Notes: a model not told the origin generated them from the letters alone. A stretch of 64,000 nt of DNA from an uncultured Ruminococcus sp. (GCA_964558485.1 CAZLED010000002.1:16853-80852), one strand, 5' to 3'. Counted from the stretch's first letter, positions 9,296 to 58,452 are shown. Program-made: numbers and translations.

Positions 9296-10555
9296 TTACA
9301 GCAGGCCGGCTTCCTTCCATTCGGCTGTTGCCTTGGCGATGTCTTCTTCGGTGGGATGATAGTCCGGGTGACTGCAGCAGGCCATGGTGGCGTTGCCGTT
9401 TTCGTCCGGGAAGGGAGAATCGTTGTCGTTTTCCCACTGCTTCCGTTCTTCTTCGTTGGTGAAGTCCGGGATCTGGTATTCCATACCGCCGTTCTGGGAG
9501 CTGCGCAGAGCCAGGATCGCCGTGGCCGACATGGAGACAGAACGGTATACGTCAAAGAAGGGCTTTTCGTCTTCCAGAATGTACTTGGCAAAGTGGTAGG
9601 CCACCCAGAAGTCGCCGCCGCCGTGACCAGCGTTCCCCGGCATGGCGTTCATCTCGTCGTCCTCATACCAACGGGCCGGGACGATGGAGACCTCCTTTTC
9701 CCCTTCCGGTACGTTCCAGCCGTTGTACTGGATGCGCACTTCTTCCAGGGTACCACGGACGTTTTCCATGTTGCCCTTTTCGGCGCAGATCCGGTACCAG
9801 TTGCCGTGACCACCCCAGGCTGCACAGCCGGTGACTCTTGCCAGGGAGCCGTCCTTCATTTCGCACAGCATGATCGCCGCCAGGTCGCCCACCTGACAAG
9901 CGGTGCCGGCCAGGGTCTCCGGTGCAAATACGCACTTGCAGTTCACGGACTTCAGCTCATTGCCGGTGATGAACAGGATGGGGGCCAGTGCATGGGTCAG
10001 GTAGTAGGAGCGGGGCAGCCAGTTGCGCCAGTGCAGGGTACCGGGAGAGAGCATATTCTTGTCGTGGGGCGTGACCGGATGGTTGTATTCCCCTTCGCAG
10101 TACAGGGCCTTCCCGAAGTTGCCCGTGGCGTACCGGCGGTGCATTTCCATATTGCAGGCAAAGAAGGGATAGTTTTCTGCCAGCATATACTTGCAGCCGG
10201 TCTTCTCCACGGTGCGGCAAAGGGCTACGCATTCTGCCATGGTCAGGGCCGGTGTGCATTCGCTGAGCACGTGGATGCCACGCTCCATCGCTTTGATGGC
10301 AAAGGGCACGTGTTCACAGAAGTAGTTGCACAGCATGACGGCGTCGAACTTGCCGCTGTTGATGAAGTCGTCAAAGTTGTCGAAAACGGCGATGTCCGGA
10401 TCCTTGTCCAGCACATCCTGGATGGAAGCGATGGAGTGAGCCTGGTTGTCGCACACAGCCGTGACCCTGGTGTTGGGCAGGTCGTGGAAGATGCGGACAT
10501 AGTTGCCGCCACGGAGCGTACCGAAGATACCAATACGCATGATCTTTGTTTCCAT
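9296..10555 (-). CDS. Gfo/Idh/MocA family NAD(P)-dependent oxidoreductase
   Basis: From ORF 9296..10684, with the start moved to METKIMRIGIFG (ATG 10555, GAGGTATATATC upstream). N-terminal Rossmann strand plus the typical C-terminal alpha/beta domain. Confidence 0.85.
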   Translation of the reverse strand: METKIMRIGIFGTLRGGNYVRIFHDLPNTRVTAVCDNQAHSIASIQDVLDKDPDIAVFDNFDDFINSGKFDAVMLCNYFCEHVPFAIKAMERGIHVLSECTPALTMAECVALCRTVEKTGCKYMLAENYPFFACNMEMHRRYATGNFGKALYCEGEYNHPVTPHDKNMLSPGTLHWRNWLPRSYYLTHALAPILFITGNELKSVNCKCVFAPETLAGTACQVGDLAAIMLCEMKDGSLARVTGCAAWGGHGNWYRICAEKGNMENVRGTLEEVRIQYNGWNVPEGEKEVSIVPARWYEDDEMNAMPGNAGHGGGDFWVAYHFAKYILEDEKPFFDVYRSVSMSATAILALRSSQNGGMEYQIPDFTNEEERKQWENDNDSPFPDENGNATMACCSHPDYHPTEEDIAKATAEWKEAGLL

Positions 10556-10616
10556 GATATATACCTCGATTCTGGATAGAATATTTCGAAATCCTATAAA
10601 AGACTGTATGTTGTCG

Positions 10617-11096
10617 TCACAGGGTCTTGCTGTACCGTACGTCGCAGGCAAAGTGTTCGGTGACCACCAGGGGCTCTGCCACACGGGTGAAGCCGTTTTT
10701 TTCGTAGAACCGCCGGGCGGCTGTCATGTTTTCCAGTGTTTCCAGATAGCAGATCTGGTAGTACCCTTTGGCATAGGTCAGTGCCGTATCCAATAGTGCC
10801 TTGGCAATACCGCAGCCTCGTGCCGCCGGAATGCAGTACATTTTCTGCAGCTCACATATGCTGCCCAGCTTGTCCAGGGTACCGATGCCCACGCCGCCCA
10901 GCACCCGATCCGTGTCCGCCACAGCGACCCAGTACCGGTTGCCGGTGGTGTTGTATATGTGGGAAAACCGACCCAAGTTGGGATCTGTCCAGGCGGTCCC
11001 GGCGTGGTCACCACCAAACTCGATGAGGCAGTCCCGGATGATCCGTTCGATAACAGGGTCGTCCTTTGGCTCGATCTGGCGAATGTGATAGTCCAT
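10617..11096 (-). CDS. GNAT family N-acetyltransferase
   Basis: 159 aa. Acetyl-CoA-binding motif LQKMYCIPAARGCGIAKALLDTAL. Confidence 0.85.
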   Translation of the reverse strand: MDYHIRQIEPKDDPVIERIIRDCLIEFGGDHAGTAWTDPNLGRFSHIYNTTGNRYWVAVADTDRVLGGVGIGTLDKLGSICELQKMYCIPAARGCGIAKALLDTALTYAKGYYQICYLETLENMTAARRFYEKNGFTRVAEPLVVTEHFACDVRYSKTL

Positions 11097-11208
11097 AGAG
11101 TGCGCTCCTTTGTGTAACGTATCTATAGTATACCGGACCTGCGTGGATTTGTCAAGGGAAAATAGGGAAAAATATCATCACCCTGCCATTTGGTACGCAA
11201 ACGAAAAA

Positions 11209-11253
11209 CCGCCTGATCTCGGCATACGTATTCCAAAATCAGACGGTTTTTTT
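11209..11253. terminator. Hairpin terminator, usable on either strand; most likely serves the AroD-like gene
   Basis: CCGCCTGAT (11209-11217) pairs with ATCAGACGG (11238-11246). An A-run lies on one side and a T7 run on the other. Confidence 0.6.
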
Positions 11254-11263
11254 GTTTACAAAA

Positions 11264-12052
11264 TCACAGCATCCGCACGTCCGGCACGTAGTCCAATGTG
11301 TCTACGAGCTGACGCATGGGCTGGAGCAGCGGCTGGCTTCTGGTGGACAGGGCATCGTACCGCTCTACGCACAGCACGATGTCACAGCCAAAGGCAAAGC
11401 CTAAGGTACGGTGCCGCTTGTTGTGGGTGCCGCCGGAGAGGAACACAAAGGGTGTGTCCAGCTCCTTGGCCAGCAGCTGTGTGGTGCGCAGGTTGTCGAT
11501 CTCCTCTTCATCGGAGTTGGCGGCAGTGACGATCTTGATCACGTCTGCCCCACGCTTCCGCTGTTCCCAGGCGATCCGCAGCACTTCCTCTGCCGGTGTA
11601 TATTTCAGCACGTGGGAGGACATGAGCACCTCACCACCGGCTTCGTGGATCCGGTCGATGAGACGACGCTGCTTGTCGATGGCAGTGGGATCCATAGTCA
11701 GCTGGATCGGGTCGGGACAGAACATATCGCCGATCACGTCTGCCAGAGTGGCACCCTGTCTTATCAGCGTGAGCAGACCTTCGCCCAGCTCGTCATCGTT
11801 CATGCCTTCGTTCATGCAGCCACGATAGTTGGTCACGTAAATGGGCTTGTTTGCCATCAAAGCGAACAGACCACGGATCGTGGCATCGTCTCTGTATTTC
11901 TGCTCCATCTGGCACTGCTGGAACCCAAAAGCGTCACAGCCGGAGAAGGCCGCATTGCGAATGGTCAAGGTGGCATCCATGGGATTTCTCGCCTGGATCA
12001 TGCAGGTCAGCAGCGGACGGGACTGGTGTAAAAAGGTAGGTTTCTTTTGCAT
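11264..12052 (-). CDS. Type I 3-dehydroquinate dehydratase (AroD)-like TIM-barrel protein
   Basis: By eye, the segment VLMSSHVLKYTPAEEVLRIAWEQRKRGADVIKIVTAANSDEEEIDNL aligns with the AroD block VVMSNHDFHKTPEAEEII...ADIPKIALMPQS. The catalytic His and Schiff-base Lys positions are kept. Confidence 0.6.
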   Translation of the reverse strand: MQKKPTFLHQSRPLLTCMIQARNPMDATLTIRNAAFSGCDAFGFQQCQMEQKYRDDATIRGLFALMANKPIYVTNYRGCMNEGMNDDELGEGLLTLIRQGATLADVIGDMFCPDPIQLTMDPTAIDKQRRLIDRIHEAGGEVLMSSHVLKYTPAEEVLRIAWEQRKRGADVIKIVTAANSDEEEIDNLRTTQLLAKELDTPFVFLSGGTHNKRHRTLGFAFGCDIVLCVERYDALSTRSQPLLQPMRQLVDTLDYVPDVRML

Positions 12053-12056
12053 GGTC

Positions 12057-12818
12057 TTATCCTCTGTTCATGGCATTGCGGCCGCCGTCGATCAGGATGT
12101 TGGTACCGTTGATGAATTGTCCCTTATCGGAGGCAAGGAACAGCACCAGGTCGATGATCTCCTGGGGTTCGGCAGCACGACCCAGCAGCGTCTTCATATT
12201 GGCCATAGCGGCTCTGGTCAGCACCGGTCCGGGAGAAACACAAACGCAGCGGACGCCATAGGGTGCACCGGCCTTGGCGATCCCCTTGGTCAGACCGTAC
12301 ATGGCACCGCTCTTGGCAGCACCGTATTCTACGCCGTAGCCGTCTCCTTCTTCGCCGGTGATGGAACCGATGTTGATGATCAGACCGCTTCTCTGTTCCC
12401 GCATCTGCTTCATGACCGCATGGTCAAAATACATCTGGGCCCGCAGGTTTACGTCCAGACCCCAGTCGAACACCTCGATCGGCACGTCGCAGAAGGTGGG
12501 GTACTTGCTGCCGTCCACCTTGCACATCCGCACAGCCGTACCGCCGGCGAAGTTGCACATCAGGTCGATGGAGCCAAATTCGGCAACCGCCATATCTCTG
12601 GCGGCGCAGACCTGTTCGTAGTCCCGTACATCGCAGTGGCAGGCTACCGCACGACCTACACCCTTGGCGTTGATCTCGGCTACCTTTTCGGCCAGCACTT
12701 CGTCGTTGATGTCACACATCAGCACATTGCCGCCTTCTGCTGCCCAGTTCTGTGCCAGGCAAAGACCCATACCGGATGCGGCGCCGGTAGAAATCGCTGT
12801 TTTGTTCTGGAATTGCAT
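12057..12818 (-). CDS. Short-chain dehydrogenase/reductase (SDR)
   Basis: From ORF 12057..12905, with the start moved to MQFQNK (ATG 12818, GGAGGACACAACT upstream). Contains TGAASGMG (TGxxxGxG) and YGAAK (YxxxK). Confidence 0.9.
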   Translation of the reverse strand: MQFQNKTAISTGAASGMGLCLAQNWAAEGGNVLMCDINDEVLAEKVAEINAKGVGRAVACHCDVRDYEQVCAARDMAVAEFGSIDLMCNFAGGTAVRMCKVDGSKYPTFCDVPIEVFDWGLDVNLRAQMYFDHAVMKQMREQRSGLIINIGSITGEEGDGYGVEYGAAKSGAMYGLTKGIAKAGAPYGVRCVCVSPGPVLTRAAMANMKTLLGRAAEPQEIIDLVLFLASDKGQFINGTNILIDGGRNAMNRG

Positions 12819-46330: not shown

Positions 46331-46371
46331 GAAATCAAGTATCGATTTGGGAAAGTGTGTGTGACCTGTAT

Positions 46372-47052
46372 ATGAATCGTTCCGGAGATGAACCGGTCGC
46401 CGGGATGGCCACCGAGACGGTCGCCGAAAAGGAACTGGAAGTGCTGCTTGCCCAGATCCGGGAAGGTCATGACACCGGCGCTTTCGAGAAGCTCTGCGAG
46501 AAATATGCCCATCTGCTGGACGCCATGGTGAAGCAGTATGCACCATCACTGGGGATCACGGCGGCACAGGGTACCTCAGAGCTGTTGGGCATCGGTCGAG
46601 ACGAGCTGCGACAGGACGCCGCTATGGCACTGTATCGCGCCGCTATGACCTATGACCCGTCGTCGGACAAGGGACAAAAGGTGCGCTTCGGACTGTATGC
46701 CAAGATCTGCATCCGCAATGCCATGATCACCCAGATCCGGCGGTATGAACGGCTGCGTGCCCGGCGGGAACAGCAGACCAAAGGTCCACCCAGGCGTGAC
46801 AGACGGGAAAAATGGGAAGCACTGGATCCATCGGTCCTGACCGGCGATACCATGGTCCGGCTGCAAACGGCGTTGTCTGCCTACGAAAAGCAGATCCTGC
46901 CGCTGTATCTGCAGGGCAAACCACCCAGAGAGATCGCCACGGTGCTTGGCCGATCGGAAAGATCCATCAGCAATGGGATCTATCGGATCAAATGCAAGCT
47001 GAAGGAGCTGCGGCAAGCGGCAAAACAACATAGGACAAAGCCTCTTCCATAG
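46372..47052 (+). CDS. RNA polymerase sigma factor, sigma-70 family (regions 2 and 4 only)
   Basis: Region 2: DELRQDAAMALYRAAMTYDP...FGLYAKICIRNAMITQIRR. Region 4 HTH: LSAYEKQILPLYLQGKPPREIATVLGRSERSISNGIYRIKCKL. Start uncertain: GTG 46357, ATG 46372 or ATG 46405. Confidence 0.8.
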   Translation: MNRSGDEPVAGMATETVAEKELEVLLAQIREGHDTGAFEKLCEKYAHLLDAMVKQYAPSLGITAAQGTSELLGIGRDELRQDAAMALYRAAMTYDPSSDKGQKVRFGLYAKICIRNAMITQIRRYERLRARREQQTKGPPRRDRREKWEALDPSVLTGDTMVRLQTALSAYEKQILPLYLQGKPPREIATVLGRSERSISNGIYRIKCKLKELRQAAKQHRTKPLP

Positions 47053-47164
47053 AGAGGATGTCATATATGCCCGAATAGCTTAAAAGAGAGCGTTGGTTAC
47101 AAAGGTGACGGTGGGAATCCGTCGAGGGCAAGAAATTTTCACCATTCAAAGCGAGGAAAAAAAG

Positions 47165-47440
47165 ATGTACGAGGACAAGACCCTGAAGTGCAAGGAATGC
47201 GGCAATGATTTCGTTTTCACAGCCGGTGAACAGGAATTCTACGCAGAAAAGGGATTCCAGAACGAACCCCAGAGATGCAAGGCATGCCGTGACAAGAGAA
47301 AGAACGTAAACAAGGAACAGAGAGAAATGTTCACCACCGTTTGCGCAAACTGCGGCAAGGAAGCTAAGGTTCCGTTCCAGCCCAGCAACGACAGACCCGT
47401 ATATTGCAGCGAATGCTTCGCCGCTATGAAGCAGCAGTAA
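47165..47440 (+). CDS. Zinc-ribbon protein with duplicated CxxC-x17-CxxC motif
   Basis: Start moved to MYEDKTLKC (ATG 47165, GAGGAAAAAAAG upstream). Motifs CKECGNDFVFTAGEQEFYAEKGFQNEPQRCKAC and CANCGKEAKVPFQPSNDRPVYCSEC. Confidence 0.75.
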   Translation: MYEDKTLKCKECGNDFVFTAGEQEFYAEKGFQNEPQRCKACRDKRKNVNKEQREMFTTVCANCGKEAKVPFQPSNDRPVYCSECFAAMKQQ

Positions 47441-47611: not shown

Positions 47612-48547
47612 ATGGAGAGAGTGACCCGTTTCATGGAAAAAAACGATTTTAACAAAAATAAAAAACAAAGCAGTGACCGGAAACGGTACGACAACAGACC
47701 CGGCTATGGGGCAGATCGTGGATCCGGTTCAGGTTCCAGCTATGGCGGCGGCAAACAGAACCGTGCGCCCAGACGAGTGGACTACGACCGGGACGAGGAC
47801 ATCGGCTTTGATCCGGAGACCACGGGGCTGGTGCTGGGGCGTAATGCGGTGCGAGAGCTGCTGCGTGCCGGCCGACCCATCGATAAGCTGTACGTGGCAG
47901 GCAGAGAAGGCTCGATCGTGGCACTGGTGGCAGAAGCGAAAAAGGCCGGTGTGCCGGTGGTGGATGCGGATGTGCAAAAGCTGGACAAGCTGGCCGGTGG
48001 TGAGAACCATCAGGGGATCATAGCCCAGACCGCAGCCAAGGAATACAGCACCATCGAAGAGATCCTTGCCATTGCCGCCGCACGTGGGGAGCTGCCGCTG
48101 ATCGTGGTCTGTGACGGTGTAGAGGATCCCCACAATCTGGGTGCCATCATCCGGACGGCCGAATGCTGCGGTGCCCACGGCGTGATCATTCCCAAGCGTC
48201 GTGCCTGCGGACTGACGGCAGCGGTGTCCAGAGCCTCTGCAGGGGCCGTGGAGCATATGGCAGTGGCACGTGTACAGAACATTGCCTCCGCCGTAGAGGA
48301 GCTGAAGGAAGCCGGTGTGTGGACCTTTGCCGCAGAAGCCGGTGGTGCCGATTTCTACGATACCGATTTTCATTTGCCCTGTGCACTGGTGGTGGGCAGT
48401 GAAGGCAACGGCGTCAGCCACCTGGTGAAGGAACGGTGCGACTTCCTCGTATCCATTCCCATGTACGGACAGGTGAATTCTCTGAACGTCTCCGCCGCCA
48501 CAGCGATCCTGCTGGCCCATGCAGCCAGACGACAGAGACAGGGATAA
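47612..48547 (+). CDS. rlmB: 23S rRNA (guanosine-2'-O)-methyltransferase, SpoU/TrmH class, with a basic Gly/Ser/Arg-rich N-terminal extension
   Basis: GRNAVRELLRAGRPIDKLYV (substrate-binding domain), then the SpoU motifs DGVEDPHNLGAIIRTA, LVVGSEGNGVS and IPMYGQVNSLNVS. Start uncertain. Confidence 0.85.
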   Translation: MERVTRFMEKNDFNKNKKQSSDRKRYDNRPGYGADRGSGSGSSYGGGKQNRAPRRVDYDRDEDIGFDPETTGLVLGRNAVRELLRAGRPIDKLYVAGREGSIVALVAEAKKAGVPVVDADVQKLDKLAGGENHQGIIAQTAAKEYSTIEEILAIAAARGELPLIVVCDGVEDPHNLGAIIRTAECCGAHGVIIPKRRACGLTAAVSRASAGAVEHMAVARVQNIASAVEELKEAGVWTFAAEAGGADFYDTDFHLPCALVVGSEGNGVSHLVKERCDFLVSIPMYGQVNSLNVSAATAILLAHAARRQRQG

Positions 48548-48682
48548 GGCCAGAGGAGCATAAGGTAACGCTGGTGAACATAAGAGGTGCCGGGCTCTTG
48601 GGGAGACGATTTTCCAAAGGGTCGGACACCGGTAAGGCATAAGAAAGGAAAATCCTGCAGCGATACAGGATGGAATTGGATT

Positions 48683-51619
48683 ATGGCAAAAGACAAAAAG
48701 CAAGACCGATACGCCGCAGAGGACAAAGCCTCCCGTACGGCGGATATCGATGTGAGCGCCGATGCCCAGGGAACGTCGGACAGCGAGCTGGATATCCAGG
48801 CGCTCTTGCGTAAGTATATGCCCGATTACGATCGGGAACCAGGCAACGACATAGAGCCCGATAAGGAGCCTGTGCCACGGGCCAAAAAGGATGTACCTGC
48901 GCAGAAGGCGTACACGGATGGGTCGGAGACAGACGCATCCGGCACAGAGGACCCGCTGGACGGCTTTGCTGGACTGGATGCCGCATTCACACCGGAGGAT
49001 GGCGGTGAGTTCGATTTCACGGACAACATCCCGTCCCGGCCAGCGGAGGATGACGGCGGTCTGGAGGATGACGAGGGCATTTACGAGGACGACGACAAAC
49101 CGGCAAAGCCCACCAAAAAGGGTGAGAAGAAGGGACTTTTCGCCTTCCTCAGTGGCCGCAAAAAGACGGTGTCCACAGACACGGTGGCTGCTGACACGGT
49201 GGCTGCGGATGACGAGGATATGCCACTGCCAAGCGAGCCGGAGCCGGTGGAGGACGATGCCTTTGCCGGACTGGCTGATATGCTGGCCACCGACACCACC
49301 GAGGCTGTCACCGATGCAGACGATACGCTGCCCGACGACACGCTGGACGACTCCTTTGGCGACAAGCTCATGGACAGCATGGGTCTGGAGGAAGCAGAGG
49401 ACGATCCCCTGGAGACCTTCGCAGGCCTGCAGACAGATGCGGACGCAGACGACAACGTCTCGGCGCTGGATCTGTTTGCGGCAGAGCTGATGGGCGACAC
49501 AGAGCCGGAGAACGCCTCTGAGACGGTCTCGGTGCCACAGCAGAAGCCGCAGAAGTCGGATCATCTCACCGACGAGGAAATGCTGCGGATGGCTGAGGAA
49601 ATGCTGCGCAGCAGTCAGCCGGCACCGGAGGAAGCACCCCAGCCGGAGCCGGTGGCAGAAGAATCGGTTGCCGATGAACCGGAGGACGAGGACTTCGATC
49701 CCACGGACATCAACCTGATGGTGGCGTTCGGGCTGGAGGACGGCGAAGACAGCAAGAAGTCCGTCAACAAAAAAACGGACAACGCCGCTTGGCAGGATGC
49801 ACAGCAGAACGCCCACAAGCTGGGTGACAAGCTGGAGCACGAAAAGGTCACAAGAGAAGGCAAGAAGGTCAAGCTGGATCGACCGGAGTACGTGGACCGT
49901 TCCCAGAACAAGACCATCGAGCACGGCTACCGCACCAAGCTGGCTGGACTCTGGATCAAGCTGGGACTGTGTGCCATCTTCACGGTGCTGCTGCTGATCT
50001 TTGAAAATATCGAGGTGTTGGCAAAGCTGTTCACCGGCACGGCCAAGCAGTTCGGCGGCGTGTTCGACCCGGCGGTGTACCCGGTGGTCTATGCCATGGT
50101 ATCCCTGCAGCTGATGCTGCTGGCCTGCCTGTGCGCCTATGAGCAGATCGGCAAGGGCTTTACATATCTCTTCCGTGGCGTGCCAAGACCGGAGAGCATG
50201 ACCGCACTGATGCTGGTGGCAGGCGTGCTCTACACCATCGTCATTGCCCGTGTCACCGTACAATCCGAGGAACCGGTGATGTTCAACTTCGTGGTGGCAT
50301 TGGCGGCGCTGCTGACCCTGATCGGCGACATCTTCATTACCCGTCGGGAGTTCATGAACTTCCATGTGATCTCCTCCGACAAGCAGAAGTACATCGTCTG
50401 CCGGGTGTCCGATGAAGGCTCCCGTGGGGAAGCTACGGCCTTCTCCGAGGAAGACGACGTGTGCGACGTGATGCGCATCGAAAAGACCGACTTCATCGAC
50501 GGCTTCTACAACCGTCTGTATACACCGGATGGCACCACCAATGTGTTCATGAGCTGTGCCATGGGCGTGATGGTGGCGGTGGCTGTGCTGTTCGGCATCC
50601 TTGCCAGCGTCCGTGGTGGTTCGACCGTAGAGGTGGCCCGTGTGGTCTGCGTGACCATGATGACGGTGGCACCGCTGTCGGTGTTCCTGTCCCTGACCTA
50701 TCCCTTCTACCGGGCCAATACGGCGGCGGCTGCATACGACAGTGCCATCATCGGCGAAGTATCGCTTGCGGAATATTCCAATGCGTCCGTTGTGACCTTT
50801 GACGACAAGAACGTGTTCCCCTCCTACAGCGTGAAGGTGCAGAATATCCGCATCTTCAACAATGCCCGTATCGACCGGGTGCTGTACTATGCGGCCAGCG
50901 TGTTTGCCAAGGCAGGTGGTCCCCTGCAGGATGTGTTCGAGATCGCCACGCTGGAAGTGGGTCACTCGGACAACGTGCAGATCTTTGGCACCGAAACGGG
51001 GATCTTGGCCGCTGAGGTGGATGGCGTGAACATCATCTTTGGTACCGGCGCAGCGCTGACGAAGAAGGGACTGAAGATCCGGCGGCAGGAGATGGAGGAC
51101 GATATGGATCTCTCCGATGAGCTCTCCATCATGTATATGTTCCGGGAAGACAAGCTGGTGGCGAAGATGTACATCCAATACGTGATGGACAGCGACATCG
51201 AGCTGATTCTGAGCCAGTTCCAGAACAGCGGCCTGTACGGCTGTGTCCGCACCTTTGACCCCAATATCGATGAGAGAATGATCGCACGGAAGGTCAAGAT
51301 GAAGCGGATGCCACTGAAGGTGATCCGGTACAACGAGCCCGAAGAAGTGACGGCGTATACAGAGAAGATGAACAGCGGTCTGGTGACCAGCGGTTCCCCC
51401 AAGTCGCTCTTGCAGATCATTTCCTATTGCGACAAGGTACTGCATACCCGGAAGACCAATATGGCACTGGCGATTTTAGCGATCCTGGTTGGTGCGGCGA
51501 TCATGCTGCTGTTGGTGCTGTCCGGCTCCATTGGCATCATGAACTCCCTGTACGTGATGCTCTACCAGCTCCTGTGGCTCATCCCCATGCTGTTTTCATC
51601 CCGCATGTTTATCCGGTGA
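48683..51619 (+). CDS. Membrane protein related to P1B-type ATPases with degenerate catalytic motifs, plus a ~400-aa acidic disordered N-terminus
   Basis: From ORF 48587..51619. ATG 48683 (MAKDKKQ) preferred, though its SD is weak. The C-terminal ~600 aa aligns by eye with heavy-metal ATPases, but VVTFDDKNVFP replaces DKTGT, TVAPLSV replaces CPC, TFDPN replaces TGDN and TSGSPKS replaces GDGxND. Confidence 0.65.
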   Translation: MAKDKKQDRYAAEDKASRTADIDVSADAQGTSDSELDIQALLRKYMPDYDREPGNDIEPDKEPVPRAKKDVPAQKAYTDGSETDASGTEDPLDGFAGLDAAFTPEDGGEFDFTDNIPSRPAEDDGGLEDDEGIYEDDDKPAKPTKKGEKKGLFAFLSGRKKTVSTDTVAADTVAADDEDMPLPSEPEPVEDDAFAGLADMLATDTTEAVTDADDTLPDDTLDDSFGDKLMDSMGLEEAEDDPLETFAGLQTDADADDNVSALDLFAAELMGDTEPENASETVSVPQQKPQKSDHLTDEEMLRMAEEMLRSSQPAPEEAPQPEPVAEESVADEPEDEDFDPTDINLMVAFGLEDGEDSKKSVNKKTDNAAWQDAQQNAHKLGDKLEHEKVTREGKKVKLDRPEYVDRSQNKTIEHGYRTKLAGLWIKLGLCAIFTVLLLIFENIEVLAKLFTGTAKQFGGVFDPAVYPVVYAMVSLQLMLLACLCAYEQIGKGFTYLFRGVPRPESMTALMLVAGVLYTIVIARVTVQSEEPVMFNFVVALAALLTLIGDIFITRREFMNFHVISSDKQKYIVCRVSDEGSRGEATAFSEEDDVCDVMRIEKTDFIDGFYNRLYTPDGTTNVFMSCAMGVMVAVAVLFGILASVRGGSTVEVARVVCVTMMTVAPLSVFLSLTYPFYRANTAAAAYDSAIIGEVSLAEYSNASVVTFDDKNVFPSYSVKVQNIRIFNNARIDRVLYYAASVFAKAGGPLQDVFEIATLEVGHSDNVQIFGTETGILAAEVDGVNIIFGTGAALTKKGLKIRRQEMEDDMDLSDELSIMYMFREDKLVAKMYIQYVMDSDIELILSQFQNSGLYGCVRTFDPNIDERMIARKVKMKRMPLKVIRYNEPEEVTAYTEKMNSGLVTSGSPKSLLQIISYCDKVLHTRKTNMALAILAILVGAAIMLLLVLSGSIGIMNSLYVMLYQLLWLIPMLFSSRMFIR

Positions 51620-51799
51620 CGGGTAAACATGCGATGTTCCATACGGTGACATAGCACCACATGACCAAAACATAACAAACGATAGGGAAAGGAGAGGTGG
51701 CACAATGCTTCTCCTTTTTCCTCTGCGTATTCCCCATATTCTGTAGGGAACGGTCTTGACCGTTCCAACAATGTGTATCATAAGAAAGTGAACAGAACC

Positions 51800-54421
51800 A
51801 TGAGAGACGATATCAAAAGCTTTATAACCACCGTTGCCAAGCCGGGGCGATATTCCGGCGGTGAGACCGGCAGCGTGTTCAAGGATTTAGACAAGGTCAA
51901 GATGCGTGTGGCGTTTTGCTTCCCGGACGTGTACGAGATCGGTATGTCCAACCTGGGGATGCGGATCCTGACCGGATGCTTCAATGCCCTGGACGAGGTT
52001 TGGTGTGAGAGAGTATATGCGCCCTGGGTGGATATGGCGGCGGAGATGGAAAAGCGGCACATTCCGCTGTTCACCCACGAAAGCGGCGACCCGGTCTGTG
52101 ACTTTGACGTAGTGGCCTTCACCCTGCAGTACGAGCTGTGCTACACCACCATGCTGAAAATGCTGTCTTTGGCCGGTATCCCCATGCGCCGGGAGGACCG
52201 TGGAGAAGACGGTCCGGTGATCCTGGCCGGTGGTCCCTGCTCCTACAACCCGGAACCGGTGGCAGACTTTGTGGACATTTTCTCCATCGGGGAAGGCGAA
52301 GAGGCGCTGCAGGAGCTGGCACGGCTGTATATGCGCATGAAGGACGAGGGCACCTACACCAAGTCTGCGTTCCTGTATGCGGCGGCTACGGAGCTGAAGG
52401 GCTTCTACGTGCCGTCCCTGTACGACATTGCCTACCACGACGACGGTACCATCGCTGCCATCACGCCCAAGGATGACAAGGTGCCGGAAAAGGTGGTCAA
52501 GCGGGTCATTGGGGATCTGGACAAGTGCTACATTCCCACGGAAACGGTGATCCCCTACATCGAGACGGTGCAGGACAGAGTGACCATCGAGATCATGCGT
52601 GGCTGCGTCCGGGGCTGTCGGTTCTGCCAGGCCGGCTTTGTGACCAGACCTGTCCGGGAACGTTCGCCGGAGCTGCTGAACGAAGCCTGCCACACCATGA
52701 TCCAGAATTCCGGTTACAGCGAGATCTCCATGTGTACCCTGTCCGTCAGCGACTACTCCAAGATCCGGGAGCTGACCGACCAGCTTCTCTCCTGGACAGA
52801 CGACGAAAAGGTCAGCCTGTCTTTGCCGTCCATGCGTGCCGACAGCTTCACCAAGGAGCTGATGGAGAAGATCTCCTCTGTCCGTTCCTCTACCCTGACC
52901 TTTGCACCGGAAGCCGGTTCCCAGCGTCTCCGGGACGTGATCAACAAAAACATCACCGAGGAAGCGATCCTCCGTGCGGCCGGTGTGGCATATGCTGCCG
53001 GAAAGAACCAGGTGAAGCTGTACTTCATGAACGGTCTGCCCTACGAGACCTACGAGGACCTGACCGGTATTGCGGAATTGTCCAAGCACGTGGTGGACGA
53101 ATACTATCGCACACCCAACCGGAATAAGGCAAGACAGCCCCAGGTCACCCTGAGCGTTGCCTGCTTTATCCCCAAGCCCCACACGCCCTTCCAGTGGGAA
53201 AGACAGAACACCTTTGCCGAGCTGGAAGACAAGCAGCACTTCCTGTCCGAGCAGATCACCGACCGGAAGGTGCGCTACAACTACCACGATGCCAAGGTGT
53301 CCCACATCGAAGCGGTGTTTGCCCGTGGGGACAGACGGGTGGGCAAGGCGATCCAGACGGCCGTGGAACGTGGGATGTGGCTGGACGCATGGGAAGAACA
53401 GTTCCAGTTCGATAGCTGGATGCAGGTGTTTGCCGACTGCGGTATCGACCCGGCCTTCTATGCCAACCGCACCATTCCGGACGAAGAGATCCTGCCCTGG
53501 GATATGATCGACTGCGGTGTCACCAAGGCCTTCCTGCTGTCCGAACGGCATAAGGCTGCTCAGGCTGCCACCACTCCGTCCTGTCGGGAAAAATGCTCCG
53601 GCTGTGGCGTGAACAAGCTGGTGGACAAGCAGTACTGCCGCTGGTGCCCCGGTCATCCGGATTCCTCCGACAGTGCCGGAGACATCGCCGGAGACTACAA
53701 GCCCAAGGAAAAGCCGGAAGCACCGGTGAAGGGCAGCATCAAACCGGCCCGTACCCTGCGGATCCGCTTTGCCAAAACGGGTCCGGCGCTGTACATCTCC
53801 CACCTGGACCTGTCCAAGGTCATGAGCCGGTGTATCGTTGCCTCCGGTCTGCCGGTGTATTACACGGAGGGCTTCAATCCCATCCCGAAGTTGGTGTTCG
53901 CAACACCTTTGTCCCTGGGCTGCGGTGGTGACGAAGAGGTGCTGGACATCCGGCTCCTGAAGGACGTATCCAATGCGGAGGCCATGGAGAAGCTTCGTGG
54001 TGCTATGGCAGAGGGGATCGTGGTGAAGGAAGTGTACACCGCAAAGGACAAGATCTCCGACATCCAGTATGCCCACAACCGGATCACCTACGGTGGTTTC
54101 GAGCCGGCAGACTATATGGTGGACGCCATAAACGATCTGTTTAAGAAGCCGGTGGTCATGCTGAAAAAGTCCAAGAGCGGCGAAAAGGAAGTGGACATCT
54201 GCACCTTCATCCGTTCCATCGAAGCGAAGATCGAGGACGTGGACGGCAAGAAGACCTTAGTGATCGATGCCATCACCTCCGCCAGCCAGGACAGCTACCT
54301 GAATCCGGAATACATTGCCACAGCCATCGAACGGGAATTTGCCCTGTCCGGTGAAGACGGCTACCACACCATCTGCCGGAAGCATTTGTATTTGGCAGAC
54401 GGCGAAACGCTGTTCCACTGA
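51800..54421 (+). CDS. B12-binding-domain radical SAM protein (TIGR03960-type) fused to a DUF2344 (TIGR03936-type) domain
   Basis: N-terminal VAKPGRYSGGE. Radical SAM cluster motif MRGCVRGCRFCQAG. C-terminal ~230 aa (LRIRFAKTGPALYISHLDL...) matches the DUF2344 pattern. Start is 51773 or 51800. Confidence 0.85.
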   Translation: MRDDIKSFITTVAKPGRYSGGETGSVFKDLDKVKMRVAFCFPDVYEIGMSNLGMRILTGCFNALDEVWCERVYAPWVDMAAEMEKRHIPLFTHESGDPVCDFDVVAFTLQYELCYTTMLKMLSLAGIPMRREDRGEDGPVILAGGPCSYNPEPVADFVDIFSIGEGEEALQELARLYMRMKDEGTYTKSAFLYAAATELKGFYVPSLYDIAYHDDGTIAAITPKDDKVPEKVVKRVIGDLDKCYIPTETVIPYIETVQDRVTIEIMRGCVRGCRFCQAGFVTRPVRERSPELLNEACHTMIQNSGYSEISMCTLSVSDYSKIRELTDQLLSWTDDEKVSLSLPSMRADSFTKELMEKISSVRSSTLTFAPEAGSQRLRDVINKNITEEAILRAAGVAYAAGKNQVKLYFMNGLPYETYEDLTGIAELSKHVVDEYYRTPNRNKARQPQVTLSVACFIPKPHTPFQWERQNTFAELEDKQHFLSEQITDRKVRYNYHDAKVSHIEAVFARGDRRVGKAIQTAVERGMWLDAWEEQFQFDSWMQVFADCGIDPAFYANRTIPDEEILPWDMIDCGVTKAFLLSERHKAAQAATTPSCREKCSGCGVNKLVDKQYCRWCPGHPDSSDSAGDIAGDYKPKEKPEAPVKGSIKPARTLRIRFAKTGPALYISHLDLSKVMSRCIVASGLPVYYTEGFNPIPKLVFATPLSLGCGGDEEVLDIRLLKDVSNAEAMEKLRGAMAEGIVVKEVYTAKDKISDIQYAHNRITYGGFEPADYMVDAINDLFKKPVVMLKKSKSGEKEVDICTFIRSIEAKIEDVDGKKTLVIDAITSASQDSYLNPEYIATAIEREFALSGEDGYHTICRKHLYLADGETLFH

Positions 54422-55740: not shown

Positions 55741-56068
55741 TAGAGGCCATGCGGGAGAGGGTTTGCTTGGCATCGTTCCATGAGAATGTCCATCGGTGGT
55801 ATTCTCCAGAGAAGTGGCGGTCGGTGTGAGCCACAGGGAACGGAGAGCAAAGGTGTAGCTCCCAAGCCGAAGGGAAGAACGTTGGTATGTGTCCGATCAG
55901 TAGAACCCTTCCGTGATTGCTGCGTCAAGGCATACGGCTTGTTTGAGCCTGAGGGGCGTTTGTGGAAAGCGCAATTTGAGTGGTACCGCGGACTATACAT
56001 AGAATTTGTTTGGTTCGTCTCAAAGAAACTCCGGTTAGGAGGATCTCTTGAGGCGAGCCAATTTTTTG
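55741..56068 (+). promoter_or_regulatory. T-box riboswitch leader (tRNA-sensing transcription attenuator)
   Basis: T-box sequence AATTTGAGTGGTACCGCG (55973-55990) against consensus AAUUAGGGUGGUACCGCG. Stem I distal elements: AGAGA (55808-55812) and loop GGTCGGTGTGA (55819-55829) closed by GTGGC/GCCAC. The antiterminator can be drawn with a 7-nt bulge TGGTACC. The competing terminator stem at 56011-56060 is followed by T6 (56062-56067). Confidence 0.85.
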
Positions 56069-56127
56069 CTTGTGAACAATACCATCCTAACCATAGAAAA
56101 CAGAGAGAGCAGAAAGGAACGAGAAGC

Positions 56128-58452
56128 ATGAAAAAACAGATCACCGGGCTGTCGTTCAAGATCCAGGAAATGGCAGGCCGTATCAAGGAGCTGCGGGAGA
56201 TCGAAGGATTTTCTACGGCCGATATGGCATCCAAGACCGGCGTGACCGAAGCCGAATACATCGCCTGTGAAGCAGGACTGGACGACCTGAACTTTGCCTT
56301 TATCTATCGTTGTGCCCTGGCGCTGGGCGTGGACGTGACCGATATCATCGAAGGGCAGTCTCCCACATTGGCCGGTTACACCGTGACCAGACGTGGCGAA
56401 GGGCAGGAGATCAACCACGCCCACGGGATGACCTACTACAATATGGCGCCTTCCTTCAAGAACCGTATCTCGGAGCCTTTGTATGTGGAAATGGAATACG
56501 ACGAAGAAGCTGCCAGAGCCGATATCGAAATGACCACCCACGAGGGACAGGAATGCGATATTGTCATCGAAGGGACCCTGAAGGTGCAGGTGGGCGAGCA
56601 TAAGGAGATCCTGCACGCCGGGGACACCATCTACTACGACTCCTCGATCCCCCACGGCATGGTGGCGGTGGAAGGGCAGAAGTGCGTGTTCTACGCCATC
56701 GTGCTCAATCCGTCCGGTGCGCCTGTGGAAGAATTCTCCATTCCCGGTGCCGAGACCACCCAGACGCCACGCCGGATCGGCAAGCCGGAGAGCGAACGGA
56801 TCTACAAGCGGTTCATCTCTGTGACCAAGGACGACAACGGCACACCCACCAAGATCACCTTCCAGAACGCCGACAAGTTCAACTTTGCCTTTGATCTGGT
56901 GGACGCTATGGGGACCGAAAAGCCCGATAAGCTGGTTATGCAGTACGTGGGCAACGACCTGACCGACCGGAAGTTCACCTTTGCCGACATCATGCACGGC
57001 TCCGCACGGTGCGCCAACTACTTCACCGCACTGGGCATCCGCAAAGGCGACCGGGTTATGCTGGTGTTGAAGCGGCACTGGCAGTATTGGTATGCCATGA
57101 TCGGTCTGAACAAGATCGGTGCCATCGCCATTCCGGCTACCAACCAGCTTTTGTCCCACGACTTTACCTATCGGTTTGAAGCCGCCGGTGTGTCTGCCAT
57201 CCTGTGTACCGCCGACGGAGACACCGCACACCAGGTGGATATCGCCATGGCAGACTACCAAAAGCCCATGACCAAGATTCTGGTCTGTGGTGGTACGGCT
57301 GGGGAAGAAAGCCCGGTACAGCGGGAAGGCTGGCACGACTTCAACAGCGAATACAGTATGTACAGCAGCCACTACGACCGGCGGGACGATTCTCCCTGCG
57401 GCGACGAACCGCTGCTGGCCTTCTTCACCTCCGGTACCACCGGCTACCCGAAGATCGCACTGCACAACCACAAGTATCCTCTGGGGCATTTTCATACGGC
57501 AAAATATTGGCACTGCGTAGACCCGGACGGCTTGCACTTCACCATCTCCGATACCGGCTGGGCAAAGTCCATGTGGGGCAAGCTGTACGGCCAGTGGCTG
57601 TGTGAAGCGGCCACCTTTGTGTACGACTTTGACCGGTTCGATGCTTCTCACATCCTGCCCATGTTTGGCAAGTACCATATCACCACCTTCTGCGCACCGC
57701 CGACCATGTATCGGATGCTGATCAAGGACGACCTGTCCGGCTATGATTTCTCCAGCTTAGAGCACGCCACCACCGCCGGGGAAGCCCTGAATCCGGAGGT
57801 ATACAAGCGGTTCGAGGAAGCTACCGGATTGCAGATCATGGAAGGTTTTGGTCAGTCCGAGACCACCTGCATGATCGGGAACCTGACCGGCGCACCCCAC
57901 AAGATCGGCTCTATGGGTCGGCCCTGTCCCATCTACGACATCCACCTGCTGGACAGCGACGGCAAGGATGTACCGGATGGGGAAAACGGCGAGATCTGTA
58001 TCCGTGTGGCAGACGGCGCACCCTGCGGTCTGTTCATGGGCTATTACCGGGACGAAGAGAAGACGAAGGAATGCTGGCACGACGGATACTACCATACCGG
58101 CGACCTGGCATGGCGTGACGAAGATGGGTTCCTGTGGTACGTAGGCCGGGCCGACGACGTGATCAAGTCCTCCGGCTACCGGATCGGGCCCTTCGAGATC
58201 GAGAACGTGATCATGGAGCTGCCGTACGTGCTGGAATGTGGCGTATCGGCCGCACCGGATGAGATCCGTGGTCAGGTGGTCAAGGCATCGATCGTGCTGA
58301 CCAAGGGCACAGAGGGCACCGAGGAATTGAAGAAGGAGATCCAGAACTACGTGAAAAAGAACACGGCACCGTACAAGTACCCCCGGATCGTGGTATTCCG
58401 GGACGAGCTGCCGAAGACGGTCTCCGGCAAGATCATGCGCAACAAACTTTGA
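56128..58452 (+). CDS. Fusion protein: XRE-type HTH + cupin domain + AMP-forming acyl-CoA synthetase/ligase (ACSM-like)
   Basis: Single open frame (part of ORF 55780..58452), start ATG 56128 with AAAGGAACGAGAAGC upstream. HTH IKELREIEGFSTADMASKTGVTEAEYIACE. Cupin HEGQECDIVIEGTLKVQVGEH...GDTIYYDSSIPHG. Ligase motifs FTSGTTGYPK, YHTGDLAWRDEDGFLWYVGRADDVIKSSGYRIGPFEIE and PKTVSGKIMR. Confidence 0.8.
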   Translation: MKKQITGLSFKIQEMAGRIKELREIEGFSTADMASKTGVTEAEYIACEAGLDDLNFAFIYRCALALGVDVTDIIEGQSPTLAGYTVTRRGEGQEINHAHGMTYYNMAPSFKNRISEPLYVEMEYDEEAARADIEMTTHEGQECDIVIEGTLKVQVGEHKEILHAGDTIYYDSSIPHGMVAVEGQKCVFYAIVLNPSGAPVEEFSIPGAETTQTPRRIGKPESERIYKRFISVTKDDNGTPTKITFQNADKFNFAFDLVDAMGTEKPDKLVMQYVGNDLTDRKFTFADIMHGSARCANYFTALGIRKGDRVMLVLKRHWQYWYAMIGLNKIGAIAIPATNQLLSHDFTYRFEAAGVSAILCTADGDTAHQVDIAMADYQKPMTKILVCGGTAGEESPVQREGWHDFNSEYSMYSSHYDRRDDSPCGDEPLLAFFTSGTTGYPKIALHNHKYPLGHFHTAKYWHCVDPDGLHFTISDTGWAKSMWGKLYGQWLCEAATFVYDFDRFDASHILPMFGKYHITTFCAPPTMYRMLIKDDLSGYDFSSLEHATTAGEALNPEVYKRFEEATGLQIMEGFGQSETTCMIGNLTGAPHKIGSMGRPCPIYDIHLLDSDGKDVPDGENGEICIRVADGAPCGLFMGYYRDEEKTKECWHDGYYHTGDLAWRDEDGFLWYVGRADDVIKSSGYRIGPFEIENVIMELPYVLECGVSAAPDEIRGQVVKASIVLTKGTEGTEELKKEIQNYVKKNTAPYKYPRIVVFRDELPKTVSGKIMRNKL

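Follow-up and report, generated by a model that had tools for sequence, protein, structure and literature searches.

A P1B-ATPase-derived protein family, very probably not a pump, is encoded beside rlmB in uncultured Clostridia

We analysed a 64,000-nucleotide stretch of DNA from an uncultured Ruminococcus sp. (GCA_964558485.1, CAZLED010000002.1:16853-80852; hereafter the window, with positions counted from its first letter), which holds a plus-strand gene whose 978-amino acid (aa) product is predicted to retain both the membrane domain, with its eight helices, and the P/N headpiece fold of the heavy-metal (P1B) P-type ATPases. The protein is very probably P1B-derived and not an ATP-driven pump, because an aspartyl phosphate and an E1/E2 cycle are deemed impossible without the catalytic signatures. 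We favour the reading, at a probability of about 0.5, that it serves as a membrane-anchored binding module without catalytic activity and is co-expressed with RlmB, the product of the adjoining upstream gene; both the partner and the function are ones that we infer.

48683..51619, plus strand: coding sequence of the pseudo-P1B-ATPase, 978 aa plus stop (ATG at 48683, stop at 51617-51619)

The preliminary description had placed the open reading frame (ORF) at 48683-51619, and both its ATG and its stop codon were located there. An in-frame GTG also occurs at 48587; the ATG is preferred because an MAK(D/N)K N-terminus is common to the homologues in their alignment. On the minus strand, a 1,238-aa ORF (47729-51445) overlaps rlmB in part and the target for the most part, crossing the intergenic region between them; it is a shadow of the kind that GC-rich coding frames usually cast, not a gene.

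A hydropathy scan placed four transmembrane (TM) helices in aa 418-555, a 61-aa loop, two helices in aa 617-673, a 249-aa cytosolic block and two helices in aa 923-978. The resulting helix order, MA-MB-M1-M2-A-M3-M4-P/N-M5-M6, is the order specific to P1B-ATPases. Against PDB sequences, a profile of 89 family sequences matched LpCopA (3rfu, Legionella pneumophila) at E 6.2e-16, with CopB, ATP7B and CadA next at ~1e-3. This match needed the diversity of the 89-sequence profile: a narrow profile of 14 close homologues gave Legionella CopA as its sole match at E 1.1, and the single target sequence retrieved nothing except a chance match to MAGE-A3. An AlphaFold2 model built from the 89-sequence alignment reached a pLDDT of 92.5 and a pTM of 0.87; the model from the 14 close sequences was poor (pLDDT 53) and was not used. 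Foldseek comparison of the former with the PDB returned 205 matches at E<=1e-3, and all 50 of those listed were P-type ATPases. The top 12 folds were P1B-ATPases, aligned over ~690 columns at ~12% identity, with 4bbj the best (E 3.6e-17), followed by 3rfu, ATP7B, ZntA, CopA 7r0g (TM-score 0.51-0.53) and CadA; KdpB folds ranked after the P1B pumps (E 1e-11 to 1e-9). Single-sequence NCBIfam matches were weak and collinear (CopA at E 4.8e-5, ZntA and ATPase-IB), CopA scoring far under its curated cut-off of 1316 bits. Pfam, including E1-E2_ATPase and Hydrolase, gave no match to the target even at E<=10 and nothing for 10 distant relatives at permissive thresholds. PADLOC gave no match for the target, ruling out a known defence protein, and hhalign of the family profile against the single canonical P2-type ATPase found beside one relative (locus L034, below) returned nothing meaningful. 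As judged from the profiles and the predicted fold, homology to the P1B-ATPases is far beyond chance; the kinship proposed in the preliminary description was thus borne out by both the LpCopA profile match and the structural comparison it had called for, in which P1B-ATPases, CopA and ZntA among them, were the best folds. The parts of the protein map to the window as follows.

48683..49693, plus strand: acidic, disordered, fast-evolving tail (aa 1-337), 29% D+E, net charge -69
49694..49933, plus strand: juxtamembrane segment (aa 338-417), mixed-charge and conserved, with FDPTDINLMVAFGL, GDKLE and KLDRPEYVDRSQ
49934..50347, plus strand: TM helices MA, MB, M1 and M2 (aa 418-555), from hydropathy and model; E441 (MA) 94% and Q476 (MB) 88% conserved
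50348..50530, plus strand: actuator-domain stump (aa 556-616, 61 aa) without a TGES loop; F560, K569 and F604 98-99% conserved
50531..50701, plus strand: TM helices M3 and M4 (aa 617-673), with A663-P664-L665 in place of CPC
50702..51448, plus strand: P/N headpiece remnant (aa 674-922), more conserved than any other part of the protein, from model, Foldseek and profile alignment
51449..51616, plus strand: TM helices M5 and M6 (aa 923-978); S955, Y961, Q962 and W965 84-89% conserved

Catalytic and metal-binding motifs were placed by family profile alignment with LpCopA, and residues were counted per column over 135 relatives down to 25% identity. Five cytosolic motifs have recognizable counterparts.

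50801..50815, plus strand: D707-D708-K709-N710-V711, aligned to DKTGT (profile alignment)
50915..50926, plus strand: G745-G746-P747-L748, aligned to (S)EHPL (profile alignment, column counts)
51179..51190, plus strand: Y833-V-M-D836, aligned to the hinge D-P-x-K, with Y833 invariant in the 135 relatives
51251..51265, plus strand: T857-F858-D859-P860-N861, aligned to TGD(N) (profile alignment, column counts)
51386..51403, plus strand: T902-S903-G904-S905-P906-K907, aligned to GDGxND (extension of the CopB alignment)

DKTG was absent at the homologous place in all 135 relatives, where the family reads [D/E/N/S/A]-D-x-[D/E/N]-V. The phospho-Asp column itself (707) is variable (D65/E35/N11/S8/A4/Q3); column 708 is D131/E4, that is, 97% Asp, and F712 and P713 come after the motif. 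The CPC of M4 aligns to A663-P664-L665, with P664 present in 134/135 relatives between variable, hydrophobic flanks. In the N domain, SEHPL aligns to A744-G745-G746-P747-L748, so that the adenine-pocket His is replaced by Gly746 in every relative (135/135); one Gly of GxG is kept, and at GN, G787 is found in 131/135 with Lys, Ser or Arg at the Asn position. TGD is partly retained: T857 is Thr in 120 and Ser in 14 relatives (134/135), D859 is invariant (135/135), Gly has given way to Phe or Leu, and there is an extra Pro. GDGxND is replaced throughout the family by [S/T]-[K/R]-x-[S/T]-x-K, which contains no acidic residue, and both of its Mg2+-binding Asp positions are now basic (K/R at 903; K at 907, 79% K plus 9% R).

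The losses extend to whole segments. The actuator domain of a P1B pump spans ~115-120 aa, about twice the 61-aa M2-M3 loop found here (family median 61, range 49-86), and TGE[SPANT] was sought in the whole target protein and not found. Only 16 aa separate K907 from M5, and the final strands of the P-domain Rossmann fold are missing. DKTG, TGE[SPANT], GDGxxD, CPx and HP[LIV] occur nowhere in the target protein; the few matches to canonical motifs in relatives sit at non-homologous places, and on the alignment we regard them as chance. The N-terminus contains neither a Pfam heavy-metal-binding domain nor CPC or its variants. The preliminary description had read DKTGT as DDKNV and CPC as APL, and the profile alignment agrees with both. 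Its FDPN for TGDN was right about the replacement and slightly overstated, as T857 and D859 survive, and its SGSPKS for GDGxND captured the loss one residue out of register (TSGSPK, 902-907). Accordingly, its statement that every signature was replaced holds for the catalytic signatures and not for the Thr and Asp of TGD or the M4 proline. The segment it called actuator-like lies where it was put, although it is halved and lacks TGES, and the P domain is also shortened after GDGxND. An alignment check for intact motifs elsewhere in the protein found none, and the degenerate ones lie where they had been described.

The family is large. Among the representatives of 50%-identity clusters, a profile of close homologues matched 2,632 at E<=1e-3, 2,019 at 1e-10 and 650 at 1e-30; these are taken as family members and fragments, and not as true pumps, because the profile barely sees real CopA. 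The residues that replace the catalytic ones are themselves conserved (D708, G745, G746, P747, L748, K828, Y833, D859, P860, N861 and K907), which marks the degenerate state as old and selected rather than a stage of decay. Of 93 positions above 3 bits, 63 lie in the P1, N and P2 remnants of the headpiece and none in M1, M3 or M5. With no canonical motif at a homologous position in any of the 135 relatives and with conserved replacements, the earlier suggestion of a pseudo-enzyme is strengthened. All database names in the family are 'hypothetical protein', and it has neither a Pfam model nor a specific NCBIfam model. Its named sources are all metagenome-assembled genomes (MAGs) of uncultured Clostridia, Oscillospiraceae, Eubacteriales or Bacillota from animal or human gut, rumen and anaerobic digesters; the nearest relative (98%) is labelled 'uncultured Ruminococcus sp.'. 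Cluster look-ups and protein searches yielded MAG-derived entries only, with no family member from a cultured isolate.

The N-terminal tail evolves differently. Residues 1-337 fall on the disordered side of the charge-hydropathy boundary and share only 14-38% identity with homologues that are 64-87% identical in their C-terminal part. In 133 relatives, the stretch ahead of the conserved core is 54-663 aa long (median 260 aa) with 29% acidic and 9% basic residues, and its net charge (median -53) is below -10 in 128/133. Two elements within the N-terminal region are distinguishable from this background, the first of them, along with a tandem repeat, lying in the tail proper.

48788..48829, plus strand: short linear motif, LDIQALLRKYMPDY, invariant in close homologues
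49178..49206, plus strand: perfect 15-bp tandem duplication encoding TVAADTVAAD

The linear motif, here ...DIQALLRKYMPDY (aa 37-49), is amphipathic and follows the family pattern x-[D/E]-L-[L/I]-x-[K/R]-L, which occurs within the first 80 residues of 68/135 members compared with 2.1 +/- 1.3 in shuffled N-termini. The other element is the juxtamembrane segment that precedes MA, in which E402 and Q408 are more than 90% conserved. Composition and these two docking-like elements are thus kept while the remainder of the tail drifts. An acidic, disordered N-terminus had been described previously, and the figures above confirm it for aa 1-337, with aa 338-417 being mixed-charge; the TVAADTVAAD duplication recorded then is an exact repeat at the DNA level.

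The one constant of the gene's surroundings is rlmB.

47612..48547, plus strand: rlmB, 23S rRNA Gm2251 2'-O-methyltransferase (TIGR00186, 236.6 bits against a cut-off of 160; Pfam SpoU_sub_bind and SpoU_methylase)
51773..54421, plus strand: B12-binding radical-SAM protein, TIGR03960 fused to TIGR03936/DUF2344, the usual downstream neighbour

We examined 62 GTDB species loci, which were found with two very specific peptides and are therefore a lower bound made up entirely of close relatives, together with 11 loci of more distant members. An rlmB homologue lay directly upstream on the same strand in all 58 loci with enough flank (58/58), typically at a gap of 13-150 bp, and the radical-SAM gene followed the target in 55/61. 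The linkage to rlmB holds in members that are 22-30% identical and whose neighbours otherwise differ: rlmB still adjoins the gene where SpoVG and MurC lie upstream (L067), where the downstream genes are other ones (L066), where an enolase gene and an ECF transporter are nearby (L071), where a Na/H antiporter lies upstream and DUF1015 downstream (L073), and where RecJ-RelA-Dtd-MetK precede it in the most distant member found (L070, ~22% identical). At this last locus, a gene for an EF-G paralogue (9354-11384) follows the pseudo-ATPase gene, a second translation-related neighbour beside rlmB.

In the window, the gene order is SBP_bac_5, DUF4364, a SigH-like sigma factor, zf_Tbcl, rlmB, target, TIGR03960-TIGR03936/DUF2344, DUF421 and DUF4363. 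These are the neighbours that the preliminary description had named, with RlmB upstream and the radical-SAM gene and then the DUF421/DUF4363 pair downstream. Its hint of a sporulation connection was not supported, and we rejected a sporulation-specific role deduced from neighbours, since the genes concerned (SpoIIP, Gpr, DUF421 and DUF4363) form part of a syntenic backbone that distant members have lost, whereas rlmB stays.

These observations suggest how the protein might work. Because constraint is strongest in the headpiece and weakest in the TM core, we read the former as a binding site or latch and the latter mainly as an anchor. The remodelled headpiece would be kept as a binding site or conformational latch, in which K828, K/R903 and K907 would take the place of Mg2+ and phosphate and face D708 and D859, and the membrane domain would serve mainly to hold it at the membrane. 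Basic partners would be recruited by the tail, which is polyanionic and disordered and carries the x-[D/E]-L-[L/I]-x-[K/R]-L motif, and co-expression with RlmB would tie this role to 50S maturation or to ribosome- or RNA-binding proteins at the membrane. That the protein acts mainly as a membrane-anchored binding or scaffold module has, in our estimate, an even chance of being right. RlmB, 50S precursors and ribosomal or RNA-binding proteins are the first partner candidates because the adjacency of rlmB is strict; a partner from this RlmB/ribosome sphere is nevertheless a tentative proposal, with the odds against it. More speculative still is a membrane receptor whose RNA-like polyanionic tail and remodelled pocket would tether RlmB, the nascent 50S or basic ribosomal or RNA-binding proteins, which we consider rather unlikely.

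Several points weigh against the binding-module reading. The salt bridges in the headpiece and the loss of nucleotide binding are deduced rather than observed, and with the register moved by one residue the near-invariant D708 would fall on the nucleophile position; the pattern D708-x-[D/E]710, present in 100/135 members, resembles the DxD motif of HAD enzymes. Polar residues within the membrane are conserved (E441, Q476, S955, Q962 and W965), as is P664, and the membrane domain may do more than anchor. The adjacency of rlmB could reflect shared expression only. In the window, RlmB carries a 72-aa basic N-terminal extension (47612-47830; KNKKQSSDRKRYDNRPGYG...GGGKQNRAPRR) rich in Lys, Arg and Gly, the E. 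coli and B. subtilis RlmB being shorter proteins; relatives have a shorter extension that is basic in only some of them, which also counts against the reading. Charge pairing between the tail and the basic RlmB extension was rejected as the extension is not conserved.

In a first alternative, the pump has become a passive pathway through which a cation or small molecule would move, as in a channel, uniporter or gated pore, with the headpiece as gate or ligand sensor and the acidic tail concentrating cations at the mouth. The helix-breaking M4 proline, the polar positions in MA, MB and M6 (E441, Q476, S955, Y961, Q962 and W965) and the polyanionic tail would suit such a protein, and the conserved hinge residues between P and N suggest that coupling of the headpiece to M4/M5 has been retained. 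However, conservation within the protein is lowest in the TM core, M1, M3 and M5 being without a single position above 3 bits; the known P1B ion ligands (CPC) have all been swapped for variable hydrophobic residues; the best-conserved TM charge, E441, sits in the peripheral MA helix; and no transporter or ion-homeostasis gene was consistently nearby in the examined loci. Because conservation sits in the cytosolic headpiece and not in the TM core, we favour a binding or scaffold role over a channel, which we regard as improbable.

The tail is also central to a second alternative, a low-affinity buffer or sensor of divalent cations in which it would bind hard cations (Ca2+, Mg2+, Mn2+) and the headpiece would report occupancy. 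The tail occupies the place of the metal-binding domains of P1B pumps and conserves its acidic composition while its sequence varies, and the hosts carry sporulation genes (SpoIIP, Gpr), sporulation being a process with large Ca2+ fluxes. Against it, no output domain or regulator is linked to the gene, which is tied to rlmB rather than to genes of ion homeostasis, and the amphipathic N-terminal motif resembles a protein-docking element rather than a metal site. We think this explanation has a slim chance of being correct.

Residual catalysis is the third alternative, with the protein a diverged HAD-type phosphotransferase or ATPase that uses D708 as nucleophile, with T857, D859 and a conserved Lys making up the rest of a novel active site. 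Viewed against the HAD motifs, the strand-end residue of motif I (707) is variable and D708-x-[D/E/N]710 is DxD-like and shifted by one residue; the Ser/Thr position of motif II is occupied (T857); basic candidates exist for motif III (K828, K in 126/135; 879, K/R in 125/135; 882, K/R in 124/135); and the acidic residues of motif IV are absent, with K/R903 and K907 in their place. The near-invariance of D708 (131/135), the D/E at 710 in 100/135 and the conservation of T857, D859 and K828 thus favour an enzyme. Arguing the other way, both the profile alignment and the strand end in the model place D707 rather than D708 at the nucleophile position, the target and 18 others have Asn at 710, the replacement of the motif IV acids by Lys/Arg removes the Mg2+ site, the TGES loop and adenine-pocket His are lost and the P domain is truncated. 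We therefore hold an enzyme to be very unlikely. Finally, a decaying pseudogene or an ORF mis-called on the wrong strand, as the long antisense ORF and the lack of a Pfam match might suggest, can be practically dismissed given hundreds of full-length homologues with a C-terminal part 64-87% identical and invariant residues, a confident predicted fold (pLDDT 92.5) and an antisense frame that runs across the rlmB/target intergenic region as a GC-rich shadow usually does.

A second, independent item is the structured leader of the gene, in which a hairpin lies between a conserved box and the AUG.

48643..48649, plus strand: GAAAGGA box, Shine-Dalgarno-like, 34-40 nt before the start codon (alignment of 32 leaders)
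48652..48671, plus strand: leader hairpin AUCCUG / CAGGAU with an 8-nt loop, between box and AUG
51679..51728, plus strand: stable hairpin with a U-rich 3' arm, 60 nt past the stop (-22 kcal/mol, z -3.1)

The box is nearly invariant and present in 30/32 leaders, and most leaders lack any further Shine-Dalgarno-like sequence close to the AUG. In 26/32 leaders, an unbroken helix of 5 bp or more begins 7-10 nt after the box start, and in 24 it ends 10-14 nt before the AUG; in the target, 11 nt separate the hairpin from the AUG. Sixteen different 5' arm sequences occur among the helices, whose sequence and length vary by lineage while their position is fixed; the layout recurs at the corresponding place in L001-L060. 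Box and hairpin may together form a ribosome-binding site split by a structured spacer, or the hairpin may bind a regulatory protein. Rfam gave no match at the gathering threshold in a scan of the window, and a tRNA scan of it was also empty. A candidate sigma-H promoter in the leader (AAAGGAAAA ... GGAAT) was rejected, its spacer being 17 nt compared with 11-12 nt in the published consensus. Several database gene calls (P0092, P0102, P0113 and P0116; L019, L025 and L043) start inside or just after rlmB; the in-frame translated leader that they contain (...KDREPRLKVNVLIMAK..., LKVNVLIMAK) is a false N-terminal extension, and the conserved 'VNVLIMAK' reflects nucleotide conservation of the leader (GTCAATGTACTTATTATGGCAAAA). 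The hairpin past the stop may be a weak terminator or a processing site before the radical-SAM gene, which in distant relatives lies 1-70 bp from the target.

Other observations concern the neighbourhood. The TIGR03960 and TIGR03936/DUF2344 parts form one 882-aa ORF in this window (51773-54421) and separate, adjacent and slightly overlapping genes (606-624 aa and 206-238 aa, respectively) at L063, L064, L066-L069 and L072; a literature search on DUF2344/TIGR03960 found nothing relevant. At L034, a canonical P-type ATPase with intact TGEA, DKTGT and GDGVND (9772-12150), which by its sequence looks P2-type, is encoded directly downstream of a 57%-identical target in the slot usually taken by the radical-SAM gene; L030, L031 and L059 also have no radical-SAM gene there. 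Upstream of rlmB in the window (46357-47440), the sigma factor is SigH-like in region 4 only and scores below all curated cut-offs; it is followed by zf_Tbcl, a double treble-clef zinc-finger protein, and the two precede rlmB in most relatives. Elsewhere in the window, an 890-aa ORF with a putative start (55780-58452) joins HTH_19, a cupin and a full AMP-binding enzyme of the acyl/aryl-CoA ligase type, an unusual fusion.

Comparison with known systems places the target closest to the P1B-1 copper ATPases (LpCopA 3rfu/4bbj and ATP7B; also ZntA and CadA), with which it shares eight helices including MA and MB, the actuator stump, P and N domains in the same order, the M4 proline and the Thr and Asp of TGD; LpCopA is the best structural match (E 3.6e-17, TM-score 0.5), and no other known system gave a significant sequence-profile match (E 6.2e-16 for LpCopA). 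Unlike these pumps, it has no conserved phospho-Asp, KTGT, TGES or CPC, half of its A domain is missing, SEHPL has become GGPL, GDGxND is basic, the P domain is shortened before M5, and an acidic disordered tail stands where they have an HMA or His-rich metal-binding domain. KdpB, the P1A subunit of KdpFABC, is a near structural neighbour that works within a larger assembly and not as a stand-alone pump; in contrast to the target, it is catalytically intact (DKTGT, TGES), has seven TM helices and is encoded with kdpA and kdpC, and nothing like these two genes is linked to the target gene. CFTR, an ABC transporter turned channel with one degenerate ATP site, is similar in concept only, having kept the fold of a primary-active transporter after full catalytic cycling was lost; its fold is different and it still hydrolyses ATP at one site.

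We know of no described family of non-catalytic P-type ATPases, and none like this one was found in Pfam, NCBIfam, PADLOC or the literature, where a search for non-catalytic P-type ATPases and FUPA families returned nothing relevant except the soluble HAD pseudo-enzyme PcrP. PcrP, of the PA2803 subfamily of Pseudomonas aeruginosa, is a non-catalytic, soluble HAD-superfamily protein that binds protein partners (PMC12132448). It resembles the target in the loss of catalysis and in its superfamily fold, which includes the P domain of P-type ATPases, but it is a small phosphonatase-type HAD without a membrane domain, N domain or acidic tail, and the two are not related at the family level.

Both fold and homology of the target are P1B, yet none of the catalytic signatures of P-type ATPases, a class defined by the aspartyl-phosphate intermediate, is intact in it, and it should therefore be filed as a P1B-derived pseudo-ATPase family and not as a heavy-metal ATPase. 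With ~2,600 clusters at 50% identity under purifying selection, the family indicates that the P-type fold can be re-used for a task other than pumping, in proteins that have been invisible to standard annotation. It also constitutes a natural experiment on the question of which residues keep a P-type headpiece intact when Mg2+, nucleotide and phosphate are absent. The strict linkage to rlmB is a lead to a membrane link with 50S maturation or ribosome-associated proteins; if the tether reading is true, the family would link the maturation or storage of ribosomes with the cell envelope across a large clade of uncultured Clostridia.

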